The notes beneath the pieces are model-generated. The model did not search any database and was not told where the DNA came from. It was given only the letters and a program-made list of their open reading frames with translations. The position numbers were made by a program, and so were the translations under genes. Of a stretch of 40,380 nt of DNA, positions 3,662 through 34,751 are shown piece by piece (position 1 is the stretch's first letter; every line of letters starts with the position of its first letter). Location: the IMG/VR virus record IMGVR_UViG_2744054872_000003, positions 1-40,380 of that record. One strand, given 5' to 3'. This DNA is from a virus (taxonomy: Duplodnaviria > Heunggongvirae > Uroviricota > Caudoviricetes).

Positions 3662-3685
3662 ACGCCCTTCCATGGGCGTTTTTTA
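3662..3685. terminator. Hairpin terminator at the 3' end of the tailspike gene
   Basis: ACGCCC-TTCCAT-GGGCGT stem with a T6 run on the plus strand and an AU-rich tract on the minus strand. Confidence 0.4.
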
Positions 3686-5941
3686 GTTCAATGCAGTCCA
3701 ATCATTACTAGTGAGACCATGAGACTTCCACCATTTACTTGTCCCTGGAAGCCATACCTCTTGACCAATAAATCGAGGTGTCACGTTACCAACAGGAGTG
3801 CTCATTCCGGCACTTGTAACAACATATCCATATTTTGCTGGGCCTGTTCCATTATTAAGGATTGTATCCTTTGTTATGCCTGTTGCCCCATTGTACCATT
3901 CCAAATCACTACCGCTAGCACCGCTAATAAATTCAGGCATAAAGTGTGAAAATGAATTATTGGCATCCACTCTTGCACCATGGTAAGCCTTATAACCGCT
4001 GGCTTGAGTATTGCTCCACCTCCCTCCTTTTACACTACCAGCAGATGAAGAGAAAAATCTTGCCGCATATCTTGCAAAACCGGCTATATTTATATCATTC
4101 AATTCATAATCAGAAAGAGACGCAATTGACATACCATCATTATTAGGAATACCTGATGCTATTTGTGGGTTTGATGCATATCCTGTTAATGTTGCTCCGT
4201 TAATATATATCCCCGTGCTTGGCCCAGTCTCTGATGTGTATATTCCAACTCCAGAACAGTTAAAAACCTGAAGATCTGTTATTCTAACATTTCTGGCACA
4301 ATTAAAGCTCAAGCCACGCTCAGCTGGTGAATAGGTATCGCGCATAGGATATCCGACATCACGCAAGCGAACTCCGTTAATGCTAATGTTGCTAGGATTC
4401 ATACCTTGTGTTACTGACTCAAAACCTTCAAATGTAATGCCATTACCAACATTGACTCCCACTACATTACTGACATGAATATCTGAGACATACCTTTTAA
4501 ATCCGATAACTCCATGGGCACAATTACGACCAACAACGTTGGTGATAATGCAATTACGTGTACCTCCTGGCACCGCTGCAGAACAATAAATTCCCAAATC
4601 CCGACAATTATCTACGAGAAGGCCGTCAATGACGGAATCTATAGCGCTTGCATACATCAGGCATGAATCAGGAGCATTAACAAGTTCAACATTCTTTAGT
4701 GTGCAACGTGCTCCACCAAAGGTAAGGATATCAGCTACAGCATAAAGCTTGTTGTTTTCTTGATTACCATCAATGCGTAAATCACGTATATGAACATCAT
4801 TAGCCCCCATGTTGTGAACAAGGTAGTAGGCCTGTGTTTTATCAACACAAATATCATCCGCAAATTTAAGCCATCCCCCAGCACCGATAAGTATTGTTTT
4901 CTCCTTGATCTGTAATCCAGTAAATATCCATGGATCTCCATCTTTATTCTTTGGAGTAATCTTTATTGCACAATAACCAGGAACAGAACCAGAATAATCA
5001 AGTGCTGCCTGTAGCGTCTGCTGATCTGTCATGCTACCAAACATAAAAGAACGCACATCAATACAGTCATCAACCTGTAATTCCAATTGTAGGCCATCAA
5101 AACGGTCAACAATAACAATACCATCTGCAGTAATACCCGTATTTGGAGTTACTGAGTACTTATTATAACTACCGGCAGAGTTTTTAACCGCCACCAGGCG
5201 ACCTTCAACGGTAGTGTTTGTTGTCAGCTCAGCCTGAGTGTCGAGCTCCATCGCAATGCCACCAATAAGTGAAGCTCCGGTAGGCTTTGCGAGTTCAATC
5301 AGCACATCTGAAGCAGAACCTGAAGGAGGTAAAACAACAATAGGGTTACCGCCGTTGTCGAAAGCTGGAATTTTATTAGCACGGGTAGCGGCATCAGGAA
5401 GTTGCGGTATCTGCTCCTGAACGCGCAACGTATTTCCTAGATTAGTACTGAGCAGTGTATCAACATAATTTTTAGTAGCAGCATCTTGAGGCTTTGAAGG
5501 ATCGCGTAAATTACGGATGTAATTGTTTAGCGCATCATAATAGTTAGCCACGAATGATGGTTTACGCAGCGCCAGGCTAAACCAACTTCTAACCTGCTGA
5601 ATCAACATCGTTAACTTATCAAACGCATCCTCATGCACCTCAGCAAAAAACTTACCCTGATTGCGCAGATCAGTTTCCTGTGTAACCGGTAGCTCTCGTG
5701 ATATAGAAATCTGATAATCGTTAGCCAACGCCTTCGACAGAATTACATTGCCTCCGTTATACCCTCCCGCACCAGTGACTGTGTAATCAGTATCAAGAAC
5801 CAGCACAGTGATATTCTCGTCAAGGTCAATCACCTGCACAACCAGATCAGATTTCTGGAATATCCTGAAGGTATAAGGGAATGTCGTTGTAACACCGTTA
5901 CCGGTGTATTCGTTGTGGTCAACTTCGGTTGAGACCGTCAT
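3683..5941 (-). CDS. Tailspike protein with T7 gp17-like N-terminal attachment domain and beta-helix-type central domain
   Basis: N-terminus YTGNGVTTTFPYTFRIFQKSDLVVQV resembles the conserved podovirus tail-fibre/tailspike N-terminal domain; central region has Asn/Gly/Val-rich repeats typical of a parallel beta-helix depolymerase. Confidence 0.75.
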   Translation of the reverse strand: MTVSTEVDHNEYTGNGVTTTFPYTFRIFQKSDLVVQVIDLDENITVLVLDTDYTVTGAGGYNGGNVILSKALANDYQISISRELPVTQETDLRNQGKFFAEVHEDAFDKLTMLIQQVRSWFSLALRKPSFVANYYDALNNYIRNLRDPSKPQDAATKNYVDTLLSTNLGNTLRVQEQIPQLPDAATRANKIPAFDNGGNPIVVLPPSGSASDVLIELAKPTGASLIGGIAMELDTQAELTTNTTVEGRLVAVKNSAGSYNKYSVTPNTGITADGIVIVDRFDGLQLELQVDDCIDVRSFMFGSMTDQQTLQAALDYSGSVPGYCAIKITPKNKDGDPWIFTGLQIKEKTILIGAGGWLKFADDICVDKTQAYYLVHNMGANDVHIRDLRIDGNQENNKLYAVADILTFGGARCTLKNVELVNAPDSCLMYASAIDSVIDGLLVDNCRDLGIYCSAAVPGGTRNCIITNVVGRNCAHGVIGFKRYVSDIHVSNVVGVNVGNGITFEGFESVTQGMNPSNISINGVRLRDVGYPMRDTYSPAERGLSFNCARNVRITDLQVFNCSGVGIYTSETGPSTGIYINGATLTGYASNPQIASGIPNNDGMSIASLSDYELNDINIAGFARYAARFFSSSAGSVKGGRWSNTQASGYKAYHGARVDANNSFSHFMPEFISGASGSDLEWYNGATGITKDTILNNGTGPAKYGYVVTSAGMSTPVGNVTPRFIGQEVWLPGTSKWWKSHGLTSNDWTALN

Positions 5942-6045
5942 GTTAAATCTCCAGATAGTCGCAGCACCCGTTGCGCCGCATATCTGGTTATTCTATTACC
6001 TGAAAAACCACATATGGATAGAAAGACTGTGAATATGAATAGATA

Positions 6046-6060
6046 TTACCTTTCGGGTAA
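6046..6060. promoter_or_regulatory. Operator-like inverted repeat TTACC-TTTCG-GGTAA
   Basis: Perfect motif copy upstream of the 6137 gene. Confidence 0.5.
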
Positions 6061-6099
6061 TTTGCAAAACGTGCTGGATAGCAAACAAATTATTTGATA

Positions 6100-6115
6100 C
6101 TGTATAAATATACAG
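6100..6115. promoter_or_regulatory. LexA (SOS) box CTGTATAAATATACAG
   Basis: Matches CTGT-N8-ACAG with an AT-rich centre, one mismatch from the E. coli consensus CTGTATATATATACAG; 21 bp upstream of the 6137 start. Confidence 0.65.
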
Positions 6116-6136
6116 TTATTGCATGGAGAAGATAAG

Positions 6137-6394
6137 ATGCAGCAGTATCACTATCCACTGGAAGACGGATTTACCGAAAGGATTCACACGCCGGGAGGCG
6201 TCAGGTCACTGGTGGAGGGATCGCATTTGATGAAATTACTCCGGGATCTCGATAAGGATGGATTTAATGTCGATGGCCCACTTGCCGAACTGACTGCACT
6301 GATTAACTACGTCACCAGCTCACAGATGTCTATGCGGGATCTGCAAACACATCTCGACTATTGTGCCGAACAATTACGAAAACAAACCAGATAA
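6137..6394 (+). CDS. Small protein homologous to the C-terminal domain of the adjacent antirepressor
   Basis: Aligns over about 85 aa with residues about 145-228 of the 6708..7394 product (shared pattern PL-G-IH-P-GV-L-E-S-LM-LL-DG-V-G-AELT-Y-RD-QTH-Y); GGAGAAG RBS. Confidence 0.55.
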   Translation: MQQYHYPLEDGFTERIHTPGGVRSLVEGSHLMKLLRDLDKDGFNVDGPLAELTALINYVTSSQMSMRDLQTHLDYCAEQLRKQTR

Positions 6395-6425
6395 GGTTTG
6401 CAATTGCCAAGTGGAGTGCTTATAT

Positions 6426-6440
6426 TTACCTTTGCGGTAA
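6426..6440. promoter_or_regulatory. Operator-like inverted repeat TTACC-TTTGC-GGTAA upstream of the antirepressor leader
   Basis: Perfect motif copy. Confidence 0.5.
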
Positions 6441-6707
6441 ATTTACATCGCACTCCTCTTGTGCCATAGTAATCGGGCACTGGCAAAATCCAGTGCCGGG
6501 ATTGGCGTCCCGAGTTACTACAGAGGCACATATGCCGCATAAGCGGTTTTTTTTATGTGTAAAGCGCACCTATTCTATGGTGGGCTGTGTGGGGGCACCG
6601 AAAGGTGCGCCGGGTCCTTTGTAGCCGGTTACGCCAACCCTGCACAGTTCACCACCAACCGATTGGCGTCGGTAGTGGTGATTAACCTAACTACAAAGGT
6701 GATCACT

Positions 6708-7394
6708 ATGACTGCTAACGTAACCCCATCTGTTTTTCATTTTGAATCAGAAGCAACCATTCGAGCCATTGTTATTGATGGAAATCCTTGGTTTGTTGCC
6801 AAAGACGTTATTAAAGCTCTTCAACTGACAAACCCCACTATGTCAATAAAATCTCTTGATGATGATGAAAGGGCTAAATTTAACTTAGGCCGTCAAGGCG
6901 AAACCAATATTATCAACGAGTCAGGCCTCTACACACTGATCCTCCGCTGCCGCGATGCAGTAACACCAGGCACTATCCCCTACCGCTTTCGCAAATGGGT
7001 TACAGGTGAGGTACTTCCTCAGATCCGCCGCACCGGAAGTTACATTAAAAACTCGCTCCCGCAGGAAGAACGCATAAAGATGGTTGCCGACCAGGTAGCC
7101 AACGCCACGGCGTCAGCAGTGATGCAGGCAATGAAGATAGAGAACAAAACCTACAGTGCCCCACTGAAGCCCGGCTACCGTAGCCTGATTCATTCGCCGT
7201 CTGGTGTTCTCGGCCTGACGGAGAACTCACTGCTGATGAATCTGCTGAACAAGTTACAGGAAGACGGGCACGATGTATCGGGCGCGGCAGCGGAGCTGAC
7301 CACCATGTTCTGCTACATCGTCGGTGTGAGCAAATGCCTGCGTGATATCCAGACGCACGCGGAGTACATCAACGACAAAGCAGGGTTCTTCTGA
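6708..7394 (+). CDS. Antirepressor, Bro-N domain protein
   Basis: N-terminus FHFESEATIRAIVIDGNPWFVAKDV...NESGLYTLILR fits the Bro-N pattern; AAGGTGA RBS before ATG at 6708; the ORF-track extension to 6555 looks non-coding. Confidence 0.7.
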   Translation: MTANVTPSVFHFESEATIRAIVIDGNPWFVAKDVIKALQLTNPTMSIKSLDDDERAKFNLGRQGETNIINESGLYTLILRCRDAVTPGTIPYRFRKWVTGEVLPQIRRTGSYIKNSLPQEERIKMVADQVANATASAVMQAMKIENKTYSAPLKPGYRSLIHSPSGVLGLTENSLLMNLLNKLQEDGHDVSGAAAELTTMFCYIVGVSKCLRDIQTHAEYINDKAGFF

Positions 7395-7466
7395 CAAGCG
7401 GTGGCACAGGGATGTGCCTTTAAATAATTCTGTACAGATTGCAGACTGTGGGTGAATAGCGTACTA

Positions 7467-7481
7467 TTACCTTAAAGGTAA
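7467..7481. promoter_or_regulatory. Operator-like inverted repeat TTACC-TTAAA-GGTAA overlapping the RBS of the 7494 gene
   Basis: Perfect motif copy directly abutting the AAGGAGG Shine-Dalgarno. Confidence 0.5.
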
Positions 7482-7493
7482 AGGAGGCGCGAT

Positions 7494-7661
7494 ATGACAG
7501 CGTTGAAAAATCGTACTCAGCACAATGAACAAGCCAAGCAATGCTGGGATGTCATTGGAAAAGTTATGCTTGGCCGCGCAAGCAAAGAGCGCGACAAGGA
7601 TATGGTTTACCAGACAGGAACATCTTTCAGCGACTTCAAGGCGGCATTTCGCTCCAAATAG
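7494..7661 (+). CDS. Small hypothetical protein (55 aa)
   Basis: Strong AAGGAGG RBS; protein-like composition; not in the ORF track because it is under 60 aa. Confidence 0.4.
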   Translation: MTALKNRTQHNEQAKQCWDVIGKVMLGRASKERDKDMVYQTGTSFSDFKAAFRSK

Positions 7662-7681
7662 AAGCACATCAGGAGTTTTCC

Positions 7682-8122
7682 TTGAAGTTTAACATTAGAA
7701 TATCTAATAGTTTTCTACATGGGGAAAGCAACACCCCTTTCGCTGTAGACGGACCTTTCCTTACTGATGATGAAATAAAAATCATACAAAGTTTTTTAGA
7801 GGATGTTGCCAATGGAAGGGCGCTTGTTGGAAAAAACAAGCCCTCGTGGGTTGATGATAACCATGATAAAATTCCCGGCTCAGACAATTATGAGCAAGAG
7901 AATTATTGGCATTATCATTGTGGGCCAACATGGTATCCAAACACATTTAAGAATTATACCATTAACTTAAATTTCAACCCTGGCGGAAGGCATTCTAATG
8001 AATGCATTCATTATGCAAAAAATGATAATGAAATTGTCATTGTTGGATTTTCAAGAGAACACATACCTTTCCTTTCATCAGATGGAAACAACAATCCGCT
8101 TTTTAATGATGAAGAAGAATAG
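7682..8122 (+). CDS. AT-rich accessory gene of unknown function (147 aa), probable TTG start
   Basis: ORF with no in-frame ATG after 7541; AGGAG RBS 6 nt before TTG at 7682; markedly AT-rich; acidic C-terminus; ends at a strong terminator. Confidence 0.45.
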   Translation: MKFNIRISNSFLHGESNTPFAVDGPFLTDDEIKIIQSFLEDVANGRALVGKNKPSWVDDNHDKIPGSDNYEQENYWHYHCGPTWYPNTFKNYTINLNFNPGGRHSNECIHYAKNDNEIVIVGFSREHIPFLSSDGNNNPLFNDEEE

Positions 8123-20958: not shown

Positions 20959-20978
20959 TGGGTCTGTTACGACCCACA
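20959..20978 (-). terminator. Hairpin immediately after the major capsid gene
   Basis: GTGGGTC-GTAACA-GACCCAC in the 51-bp gap after the capsid stop; no clear U-tract. Confidence 0.35.
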
Positions 20979-25313: not shown

Positions 25314-25390
25314 GTGGCATTAGCTCAGTTGGACAGAGCAACCGCCTTCTAAGCGGTTGGTCGCAGGTTCGAATCCTGCATGCCGCGCCA
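25314..25390 (+). tRNA. tRNA-Arg, anticodon TCT (reads AGA)
   Basis: Hand-folded cloverleaf: 7-bp acceptor stem GTGGCAT/ATGCCGC (one G-U), D-arm GCTC...GAGC, anticodon stem ACCGC/GCGGT with loop CTTCTAA, T-arm GCAGG-TTCGAAT-CCTGC, discriminator G, encoded CCA. Confidence 0.85.
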
Positions 25391-34048: not shown

Positions 34049-34111
34049 TCACCCATAAGGTAACAAAAATCAAGGATAGTTACCTATGAGGTGCATTTAC
34101 CTGTTGGGTAA
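34049..34111. promoter_or_regulatory. Tripartite operator region with divergent promoters (OR-like)
   Basis: Three motif copies: TCACC-CATAA-GGTAA (34049..34063), TTACC-TATGA-GGTGC (34080..34094), TTACC-TGTTG-GGTAA (34097..34111); the minus-strand TTGTTA-N17-TATTAT promoter for the cro-like gene overlaps the first. Confidence 0.65.
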
Positions 34112-34166: not shown

Positions 34167-34751
34167 ATGAAAAGTATCCAGGACGTCCGCAGGCAAAATC
34201 TCAACGACTTGATCGACCGTGAATTCAATGGTGTTCAGACGCGGATGGCAGAAAAACTTGGAACTCAGGCAAATCTGGTAAACCGCTGGGCTCTTGGCAA
34301 GAAGGTTATCGGCGACCAGGTTGCGCGAAAAATTGAAGCTGCCGCCAATAAACCCCGTAACTGGCTTGATATCGATCGCTCGCTTTCTCAGGAAGGTTTT
34401 CAGCCTGTCGGCCCAAGCGACATTGGTCAGCTGGCGGCTCACAACCTGGAACGCTGGATGAGCGAAAGCCGCGACCTTTCAACACAGGGAAAACTTCACC
34501 GCGCATCCGGCGTCGCCCAGGTGACAATCAGCCGCCTGTTAAACAATGAGGTCAGCGTTTCCATTTCCACCCTGGAGAATGTTGCATCTGCATTCGGGCG
34601 TCACGGATATGAACTACTGATTCATCCGCATGACCCTGCAACTATCAACTATGACCGCTCGCGCTACGCATTGTTACCTGAAACAGAGAAGGCAAAGATC
34701 GAAAGTTACATTGAATTTGTCATCAACCAGAACGAAAAAAGCAAACAATAA
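34167..34751 (+). CDS. Prophage repressor (cI-like) with HTH domains and no S24 peptidase domain
   Basis: N-terminal XRE-type HTH (MAEKLGTQANLVNRWALGKKVIGDQVARKIE) and a second HTH-like segment; no Ala-Gly/Ser/Lys autocleavage module; sits upstream of the early-left promoter in cI-like orientation. Confidence 0.65.
   Translation: MKSIQDVRRQNLNDLIDREFNGVQTRMAEKLGTQANLVNRWALGKKVIGDQVARKIEAAANKPRNWLDIDRSLSQEGFQPVGPSDIGQLAAHNLERWMSESRDLSTQGKLHRASGVAQVTISRLLNNEVSVSISTLENVASAFGRHGYELLIHPHDPATINYDRSRYALLPETEKAKIESYIEFVINQNEKSKQ

Follow-up and report, generated by a model that had tools for sequence, protein, structure and literature searches.

The window analysed here is the whole 40,380-nt stretch of IMG/VR virus record IMGVR_UViG_2744054872_000003 (positions 1 to 40,380). 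It is the genome of an epsilon15/phiV10-like temperate podophage of the genus Uetakevirus, and our subject is its antirepressor (ant) locus, in which a small gene, ant-S, lies ahead of a larger gene, ant-F, whose product carries an Ant-S-like domain behind a Bro-N head. Across positions 5900-7700 the stretch is 93-97% identical to Escherichia phages HEMP4, TL-2011b, phiv142-3, vB_EcoP_ZX5 and phiV10, and 78% identical to Enterobacter phage Tyrion. We consider it fairly probable that the two products are antirepressors which share one domain directed at the phage repressor Rep and which answer different inputs, the SOS response for one and an RNA-based switch of immunity for the other. The small gene and its control region comprise the following features:

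3683..5941, minus strand: tailspike gene.
6046..6060, unstranded: palindrome TTACCTTTCGGGTAA between the divergent tailspike and ant genes, probably a Rep operator.
6098..6117, unstranded: LexA (SOS) box TACTGTATAAATATACAGTT, with its core CTGT-N8-ACAG at 6100-6115.
6137..6394, plus strand: ant-S, stand-alone 85-residue antirepressor, orthologue of SPC32H Ant (by PDB 5D50_E, tblastn, phrog_450 and substitution ratios).

The reading frame of ant-S runs from ATG 6137, with a GGAG Shine-Dalgarno sequence 8 nt upstream, to the stop at 6394. Its product matches PDB chain 5D50_E, the 'Anti-repressor protein' Ant of Salmonella phage SPC32H, at an expectation value (E) of 1.4e-46 (residues 2-84 against 3-85), is 86.7% identical by tblastn to the ant gene as annotated in both SPC32H and SPC32N, and falls into the stand-alone PHROG family phrog_450 (E 7e-48). 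Furthermore, ant-S is clearly coding, as the ratio of non-synonymous to synonymous substitution rates (dN/dS), which comes to 0.05 in the comparison with Tyrion and to 0.07 in that with SPC32H at a dS above 1.3, indicates strong purifying selection. As judged by orthology, which settles its identity, ant-S is an SOS-triggered antirepressor of the already characterised SPC32H Ant family, although RefSeq, phiV10-type records and the paper on a near-identical phage all list the gene as a 'hypothetical protein'.

The work of Kim and Ryu (J Virol, 2013) and of Kim et al. (PNAS, 2016) on SPC32H is reported to show that its Rep stays uncleaved at induction and is inactivated by the small Ant, that LexA is said to repress the ant promoter, that one change in the LexA box reportedly turned the phage into the constitutively lytic SPC32N, and that an Ant tetramer is said to bind two Rep dimers and to dismantle the DNA-binding Rep tetramer; the abstract of the 2013 paper is also said to report 'numerous Ant homologues'. 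Secondary sources agree with this account of the switch. SPC32H Ant has been crystallised in complex with Rep (PDB 5D50; 5D4Z is a further entry for this system) and is a tetramer (PMC9638917). Every feature of SPC32H Ant that could be checked is found at ant-S, that is, full-length homology, a LexA box and a cognate Rep, and by analogy its product would be a Rep-binding tetramer that frees Rep from DNA. Both genes occupy the same slot between the tailspike and virion genes, and SPC32H as well as epsilon15 carry the small gene only, without a Bro-N partner. The suggestion of the preliminary description, that the separately expressed small protein could be the true repressor-binding antirepressor, fits these observations well, given its 87% identity to the Rep-bound Ant of SPC32H, the lack of a Bro-N partner there and the Rep homologue in the window.

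Also proposed in that description was an SOS box of its own for the small gene, and this is borne out, as CTGTATAAATATACAG at 6100-6115 is a perfect LexA box. The motif CTGT-N8-ACAG has just three matches in 40 kb, and the two others, at 20964 and 25506, are probably chance occurrences. When the sequences upstream of ant from the window, phiV10, Tyrion, SPC32H, SPC32N and one Klebsiella phage were aligned, the box of the window coincided column for column with that of SPC32H, and the sole difference between SPC32H and SPC32N in the aligned stretch was that the right half-site reads ACAG in the former and AAAG in the latter. Occupancy of the 6100-6115 site by LexA is predicted from this agreement. 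All aligned phages (phiV10, Tyrion, SPC32H, SPC32N and the Klebsiella phage) also carry ATTACC-N5-GGTAAT at the position of the 6046-6060 palindrome, which in the window stops 1 bp short of TTGCAA, the -35-like hexamer of the ant-S promoter. A promoter consensus scan lists no ant-S promoter, the -10 and -35 elements of which are not placed with confidence. Between the palindrome and the LexA box, a block at 6072-6081 (TGCTGGATAG) is kept in the E. coli, Enterobacter and Salmonella relatives.

This palindrome is part of a genome-wide set, and its distribution is best seen together with the repressor gene:

34167..34751, plus strand: rep, 194-residue SPC32H-type repressor (PDB 5D50_A, E 3.5e-42, residues 1-190).
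34049..34111, unstranded: palindrome cluster between the cro-like gene and rep, made of 34049-34063, 34097-34111 and a degenerate copy TTACCTATGAGGTGC at about 34080-34094 (by eye).
3290, 6046, 6426, 7467, 24977, 28086, 28104, 31704, 31766, 33712, 34049, 34097, 34809 and 34871: the 14 palindrome copies, 15 bp each.

Counted with one mismatch allowed, TTACC-N5-GGTAA has 14 copies in the window against 0.64 expected, and 18 in SPC32H against 0.74 expected. Both phages have a cluster of copies in the interval that separates rep from the divergent cro-like gene (the equivalent triple site of SPC32H lies at 34390/34407/34437), and in both, further copies stand at the start of the same transcription units, those for lysis, tailspike/ant, virion, terminase, replication and early-left genes. 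From this copy number and placement, the palindrome is probably the Rep operator, and the arrangement suggests that epsilon15-like phages have a P1-like dispersed-operator organisation. The operator ascribed earlier to the small gene is thus real as a palindrome, and its binding by Rep is what we infer from the same counts. Rep of the window is about 43% identical to SPC32H Rep and is the presumed target of both Ant-domain proteins; palindrome positions are kept in SPC32H despite this low identity.

The second Ant domain of the locus belongs to ant-F:

6708..7394, plus strand: ant-F, 228 residues, Bro-N head followed by a C-terminal Ant-like domain.
6759-7019, plus strand: Bro-N head of ant-F, residues 18-104 (Pfam PF02498).
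7146-7379, plus strand: Ant-like domain of ant-F, residues 147-224, by similarity to Ant-S and 5D50_E.

The list of open reading frames (ORFs) gives this gene as 6555..7394, and its start was reassigned to ATG 6708 because of the Bro-N homology, a AAAGGTGA Shine-Dalgarno sequence and the annotations of relatives. Residues 18-104 form a BRO family N-terminal domain (PF02498, 72.3 bits against a cut-off of 25.6), whereas the C-terminal part aligns with Ant-S without gaps by BLASTP (32/78 identities, 41%, E 2e-20, residues 2-79 of Ant-S against 147-224); the ant-F product also matches phrog_450 (9e-36) and 5D50_E (1.5e-13). Hence the C-terminal paralogy asserted in the preliminary description holds, the alignment being significant, the matches to phrog_450 and 5D50_E being shared, and the small frame being coding by its dN/dS of 0.05-0.07. 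The duplication is not a local one, however. Within the window 85% of synonymous sites differ between Ant-S and the fusion domain (pS 0.85), and because such divergence is saturated, the split between the stand-alone (S) and fusion (F) copies must be old; together with the separation of S and F into two clades, it rules out a recent tandem duplication of S into F. Purifying selection acts on the F domain too, with a dN/dS of 0.23 in the comparison with Tyrion and of 0.19 in that with Klebsiella. No third Ant-domain copy was found in the window. The C-terminal 80 or so residues of Ant-F are an old paralogue of Ant-S and would most likely address the same target, Rep.

The Ant domain is rare. 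An exhaustive profile search of 1.84 billion representatives returned only 65 members at E <=1e-3; word-indexed protein searches gave close relatives only, and it was through the exhaustive profile search that the architectures became visible. Members are either stand-alone proteins (82-95 residues) or sit at the extreme C-terminus behind Bro-N, AntA, Phage_pRha or ORF6N, and also behind P22_AR_N. In the domain alignment the stand-alone clade separates from the fusion clade, and 16 residues are invariant in both (Y4, I16, H17, G21, L25, S29, M32, L35, D41, G42, V45, A50, E51, Y58, T71 and H72). Conservation across the two clades includes an extended N-terminal segment (Y4, P7, L8, I16, H17, P19 and G21), and in a monomer model of the F domain the helical core is the best modelled part, while this segment is of low confidence with little regular structure.

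In the main rival explanation, the shared domain serves oligomerisation only, so that Ant-S binds Rep while the Bro-N head of Ant-F acts on some other target, for example DNA, a host factor or the repressor of another prophage. That SPC32H Ant is a tetramer (PMC9638917) agrees with it, as does the helical core being the best conserved and best modelled part of F, the occurrence of the same domain on five 'antirepressor head' families, as would be expected of a generic assembly module, and the faster divergence of F than of S (dN/dS 0.2 against 0.05). However, the family is tiny (65 members in 1.84 billion) and, within the phage collection, restricted to Rep-carrying phages, where a generic tetramerisation domain should have a broader distribution. 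The extended N-terminal segment is conserved in both clades and has the low-confidence, little-structured model typical of a partner-binding segment, and phages whose Rep is identical retain F but exchange its head. We therefore regard an oligomerisation-only role as unlikely, and retain the view that both proteins carry a Rep-targeting domain.

The only experiment we found on a Bro-N fusion of this kind comes from phage vB_EcoP_ZX5, in which over-expression of the Bro-N 'ORF4 anti-repressor' cut the lysogen titre from 1e9 to 1e6 (about 1000-fold) and lowered the rep transcript by 75% (PMC9782041). ZX5 is 99.5% identical to the window in Rep and 98.9% in the F domain; the small gene, the RNAs and the shared domain go unrecognised in that paper (PMC9782041).

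Between ant-S and ant-F lies an RNA cassette, with two regulatory RNAs that the preliminary description overlooked:

6426..6440, unstranded: second palindrome TTACCTTTGCGGTAA, which stops 2 bp short of the isrK promoter -35.
6442..6470, plus strand: PisrK, promoter-like (TTTACA, 17-nt spacer with TG, CATAGT), from the consensus scan.
6477..6553, plus strand: IsrK-type small RNA (matches Rfam RF01394 at 74.2 bits, gathering score 50).
6502-6508: IsrK decoy site a1, TTGGCGT, in the IsrK loop, complementary to C4 a'.
6518-6526: IsrK decoy site b1, CTACAGAGG, pairing with the C4 loop with one G-U pair (read by eye).
6534-6553, plus strand: IsrK intrinsic terminator.
6573..6659, plus strand: C4-type antisense RNA (matches Rfam RF01695 at 79.5 bits, gathering score 45).
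6616-6624: C4 loop b', CCTTTGTAG (also written CCUUUGUAG), exact 9-nt complement of b2.
6631-6637: C4 a', ACGCCAA, 7-nt complement of a2 and of IsrK a1.
6663-6669, plus strand: C4 target a2, TTGGCGT, in the ant-F leader.
6691-6699, plus strand: C4 target b2, CTACAAAGG, in the ant-F leader, covering the Shine-Dalgarno sequence of the Bro-N gene.

The predicted start of PisrK, near 6477, coincides with position 1 of the IsrK model match, and the palindrome ahead of isrK recurs in the same arrangement in the Klebsiella phage. By its RNAs, the cassette falls into the C4/IsrK class. The fusion gene has IsrK and C4 ahead of it in phiV10, TL-2011b, Tyrion and Klebsiella phage ST512-KPC3phi13.3, whereas SPC32H has neither RNA, its ant being followed by a terminator and then by the virion genes; thus the Bro-N gene belongs to a separately inserted immI-type cassette and did not arise by local duplication of the small gene. 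The scan found no terminator between ant-S and isrK (6394 to 6534). There is no separate coupling ORF of the icd/orf45 type; instead, ATGs at 6555 and 6576 open a stop-free frame that runs through C4 into the Bro-N gene, and this frame (6555-6707) may be the counterpart of Gifsy-1 orf45 or may be incidental. Gene callers extend relatives likewise, for example at the N-termini of P0148 and P0142.

How the two copies are distributed bears on their respective roles. In a collection of 50,697 phage records the Ant domain occurs in 35, all of which (35/35) have a Rep homologue; Rep itself is in 36 records, excluding one 65-residue partial match in a Pseudomonas phage. The S copy is present in 35/35, and 19/35 carry F as well (E. 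coli phiV10-like phages, Tyrion and three Klebsiella phages), leaving 16/35 with S only, which are all Salmonella epsilon15/SPC32H-type phages and a few others. The idea that the small protein is a decoy tuning the full-length one finds no footing here, as the small gene is the universal core (35/35) and the fusion an accessory (19/35) that is frameshifted in phiV10. A wider view came from an IMG/VR sample of 80 loci whose S copies are at least 98% identical, with roughly 370 further loci outside the sample. The LexA box was kept upstream of the small gene in 78/80, the palindrome likewise in 78/80, and at least one F gene lay within 10 kb in 71/80. These loci held 84 F ORFs, with 60 Bro-N, 17 AntA, 2 ORF6N and 4 P22_AR_N heads and one cut by a contig end, and IsrK and C4 precede 76 of the 84. 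Bro-N heads among them are 59-100% identical to that of the window, while the F domains are 94-100% identical to its F domain; N-terminal heads are hence swapped among near-identical phages. At a coverage of at least 80%, the whole locus is found in 236 of 5,426 complete E. coli genomes (about 4%).

These counts also speak to the notion that the Bro-N fusion cassette is a decaying passenger, an immI-type remnant whose similarity to Ant-S is a historical leftover. Its absence from 16/35 records, its frameshifts in phiV10 and two O157 typing phages, and the existence of truncated and relocated F fragments would be in keeping with decay. Yet the copies from E. coli, Enterobacter and Klebsiella alike show purifying selection, the RNA elements are whole and retain their complementarities, the locus is intact in 236/5,426 complete E. 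coli genomes, and the ZX5 homologue has an over-expression phenotype (PMC9782041), so that we rate this the least probable of the explanations weighed here.

Broken and displaced copies deserve description in their own right. In phiV10 (L001 3071-3750) the Bro-N gene is frameshifted within the Ant-like domain and annotated as two ORFs, p23 and p22, and O157 typing phages 9 and 10 have a frameshifted F domain with the same two-piece match. An E. coli prophage beside guaA (L012 4001-4294) carries a 97-residue stand-alone copy of the fusion clade, 91% identical to that of the window, which overlaps by ATGA the MT-A70 methylase gene that closes the early-left operon, next to the integrase. The third Ant-domain copy that TL-2011b and HEMP4 carry may be of this type. 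A Raoultella/Klebsiella metagenome contig (L010 3900-4288) holds a 5'-truncated Bro-N fusion remnant, of which the linker and the Ant-like domain are left, downstream of an AlpA-like small ORF (by eye) in an island beside host genes and without IsrK or C4; this could reflect decay or capture by a satellite-like element. The 95-97-residue 'stand-alone F' proteins of the databases were rejected as genuine stand-alones, one being a 5'-truncated fusion remnant and another an F fragment attached where the early-left operon ends.

A different possibility, which takes up the decoy idea of the preliminary description, is that Ant-F and Ant-S co-assemble into mixed tetramers, one tuning or poisoning the other. 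The 16 invariant core residues common to S and F would permit this, and the genes are adjacent and probably partly co-transcribed (no terminator in 6394-6534). On the other hand, the small protein works alone in SPC32H and epsilon15, and identity between the two copies is no more than 41%, with their synonymous sites saturated. We judge co-assembly of this kind to be quite improbable, and return to two antirepressors that share a Rep-targeting domain under different controls.

In a lysogen, on this model, Rep would sit on its operators, LexA on the ant-S promoter, and C4 would mask the ribosome-binding site of the Bro-N gene. DNA damage would lead to LexA cleavage and to synthesis of Ant-S, whose tetramer, by comparison with the 87%-identical orthologue, would bind Rep and strip it off DNA. 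C4 would be cut from the leader of ant-F itself and keep translation off by masking the ribosome-binding site, until IsrK, with its decoy copies of the C4 target sites, relieves the block and allows Ant-F to be made. This release might come from an excess of IsrK or from heterologous superinfection, the event that switches on the antirepressor of P1/P7 immI. Salmonella IsrK is up in stationary phase and at low Mg2+ (PMC4825925). Ant-F would then strike the same Rep via its Ant-like domain. Moreover, because no terminator separates ant-S from isrK, SOS transcripts should run on into isrK and carry its decoy sites, and since both promoters are flanked by a palindrome, loss of Rep may feed forward on both genes, opening both promoters further, if the palindromes repress.

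Several points weigh against this interpretation. Counted from the presumed starts, the palindromes are centred about 44-45 bp upstream, which would suit activation as well as repression. In the SPC32H work, the SPC32N phenotype reportedly means that Rep fails to keep ant-S shut when LexA cannot bind. The residues common to S and F could serve tetramerisation alone, and contact between the F domain and Rep is a prediction. Co-occurrence with Rep is confounded by common descent, because the 35/35 records represent one phage group. Lastly, Ant-F is dispensable, as it is absent from 16/35 records and frameshifted in phiV10.

A bolder extension, which we put forward as speculation and consider rather doubtful, is that the SPC32H-Ant fold is a portable repressor-addressing module, used stand-alone for SOS induction and, on swappable heads (Bro-N, AntA, ORF6N, P22_AR_N or Rha), to bring a second activity to Rep or to Rep-bound DNA. 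As both forms would oligomerise through the same core, mixed tetramers are conceivable under this extension and may let the fusion set the threshold or the irreversibility of SOS induction. If true, the C-terminal domains of uncharacterised Bro-N/KilA-type 'antirepressors' would be specificity determinants readable from sequence, and the heads would do otherwise. Apart from this extension, the locus offers a natural case in which LexA and an antisense-RNA immunity switch, two unrelated kinds of control, govern one repressor-targeting domain. It is also a tractable system for asking which half of Bro-N, AntA, Rha or P22_AR 'antirepressors' holds target specificity, and how one prophage combines SOS-dependent with SOS-independent induction.

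Around the locus, gene order is as in the relatives (lysis, tailspike, ant locus, virion, terminase, replication, rep, early-left operon and integrase), and a tRNA-Arg gene (anticodon TCT, 25314-25390) lies between the terminase and virion genes, likewise as in relatives. A palindrome at 7467-7481 overlaps a promoter-like site ahead of the ORF that follows ant-F. The segment at 7494-8122, after or within the antirepressor locus, is a variable cargo slot that here holds two ORFs (phrog_8607 and phrog_5954) of unassigned function, neither of which had a match in Pfam, NCBIfam or PADLOC; the four local proteins had 0 matches in PADLOC and NCBIfam. In TL-2011b the slot contains a YafO-family toxin gene unrelated to the ORF of the window, and in a Klebsiella phage a HicAB-like pair (judged by eye) stands between the small ant gene and isrK. 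Each cargo slot has its own promoter-like site overlapped by a palindrome (compared stretches: L006 274-973 and L003 3346-3800).

Among known systems, the Rep/Ant/LexA circuit of SPC32H is the closest, sharing an orthologous small gene of the same length in the tailspike-adjacent slot, a LexA box, an upstream palindrome and a Rep homologue. It differs in that its small gene is followed by a terminator, in place of which the window has the isrK-C4-Bro-N cassette with a second Ant domain.

Gifsy-1 likewise combines, in one prophage, an SOS-controlled small antirepressor with a larger one under IsrK control, and has the same layout of isrK, a C4-like processed RNA (STnc1160/orf45) and an antirepressor gene. 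There, read-through past the IsrK terminator yields an untranslatable mRNA of isrK-orf45-anrP that is activated in trans by short IsrK (Hershko-Shalev et al. 2016, PMC4825925), and GfoA is a LexA-controlled small antirepressor (Lemire et al. 2011, PMC3121763). Gifsy-1 has a separate orf45 whose translation is coupled to that of anrP, whereas in the window the upstream frame continues without a stop into the Bro-N gene; the two antirepressor genes of Gifsy-1 also lie about 3 kb apart, in different operons. Taking STM2621.1n, the ORF beside the dinI homologue, as the Gifsy-1 small antirepressor (our own assignment), we found no alignment of it with Ant-S at E up to 100 and no significant BLASTP similarity between the ant-F product and STM2616/AnrP. 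STM2621.1n is unrelated to AnrP, and neither is related to the proteins of the window. As far as these comparisons go, Ant-S works like the LexA-controlled antirepressors of the Tum/GfoA type but is not homologous to that of Gifsy-1. Since the Gifsy-1 pair is unrelated, a stand-alone plus a fused copy was rejected as a general rule for prophages with SOS and IsrK antirepressors.

With immI of P1/P7 (c4, icd, ant1/ant2), the window shares the C4 family, a two-site a'/b' antisense RNA cut from the transcript of its target, and the a1/b1 - a'/b' - a2/b2 layout with decoys upstream and targets downstream over the ribosome-binding site; P1 also has a main repressor with genome-dispersed operators, one of them at this promoter. 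Control of immI by c4, icd and ant1/ant2 is said to have been worked out by Citron and Schuster in 1990. Unlike P1, the window lacks an icd-like gene and the target site covers the Shine-Dalgarno sequence of the antirepressor itself; furthermore, P1 makes long and short Ant from one gene, whereas the short form of the window is a separate, SOS-controlled gene. P22 resembles it as a short-tailed temperate phage whose second immunity region, immI (mnt, arc, ant and sar RNA), places an antirepressor beside the tailspike gene 9, and some relatives of the window carry a P22_AR_N head on the Ant-like domain. P22, however, uses protein control by Mnt and Arc rather than LexA and IsrK/C4, and its main repressor is RecA-cleavable.

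Modular antirepressors with Bro-N, KilA-N, AntA, Rha, ORF6N or P22_AR_N heads and varied C-terminal domains were reportedly described by Iyer, Koonin and Aravind in 2002. The window conforms to this plan with its Bro-N head and C-terminal module, as do the relatives that swap the head, but its C-terminal module is tied to the structurally characterised 5D50_E and occurs also as a separate gene at the same locus. We found no description of a stand-alone paired with a fused Ant domain in the searchable literature, which does not include Kim & Ryu 2013. The parts are therefore known and the pairing is apparently undescribed, a modest novelty; the remark in the preliminary description that this is not a standard feature stands for the pairing and falls for the small gene, a member of a characterised family. 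Current understanding is not overturned by these results. The locus stands out because its two modules share an effector domain, one that stays constant while the heads are shuffled and that can be linked to a solved repressor complex.

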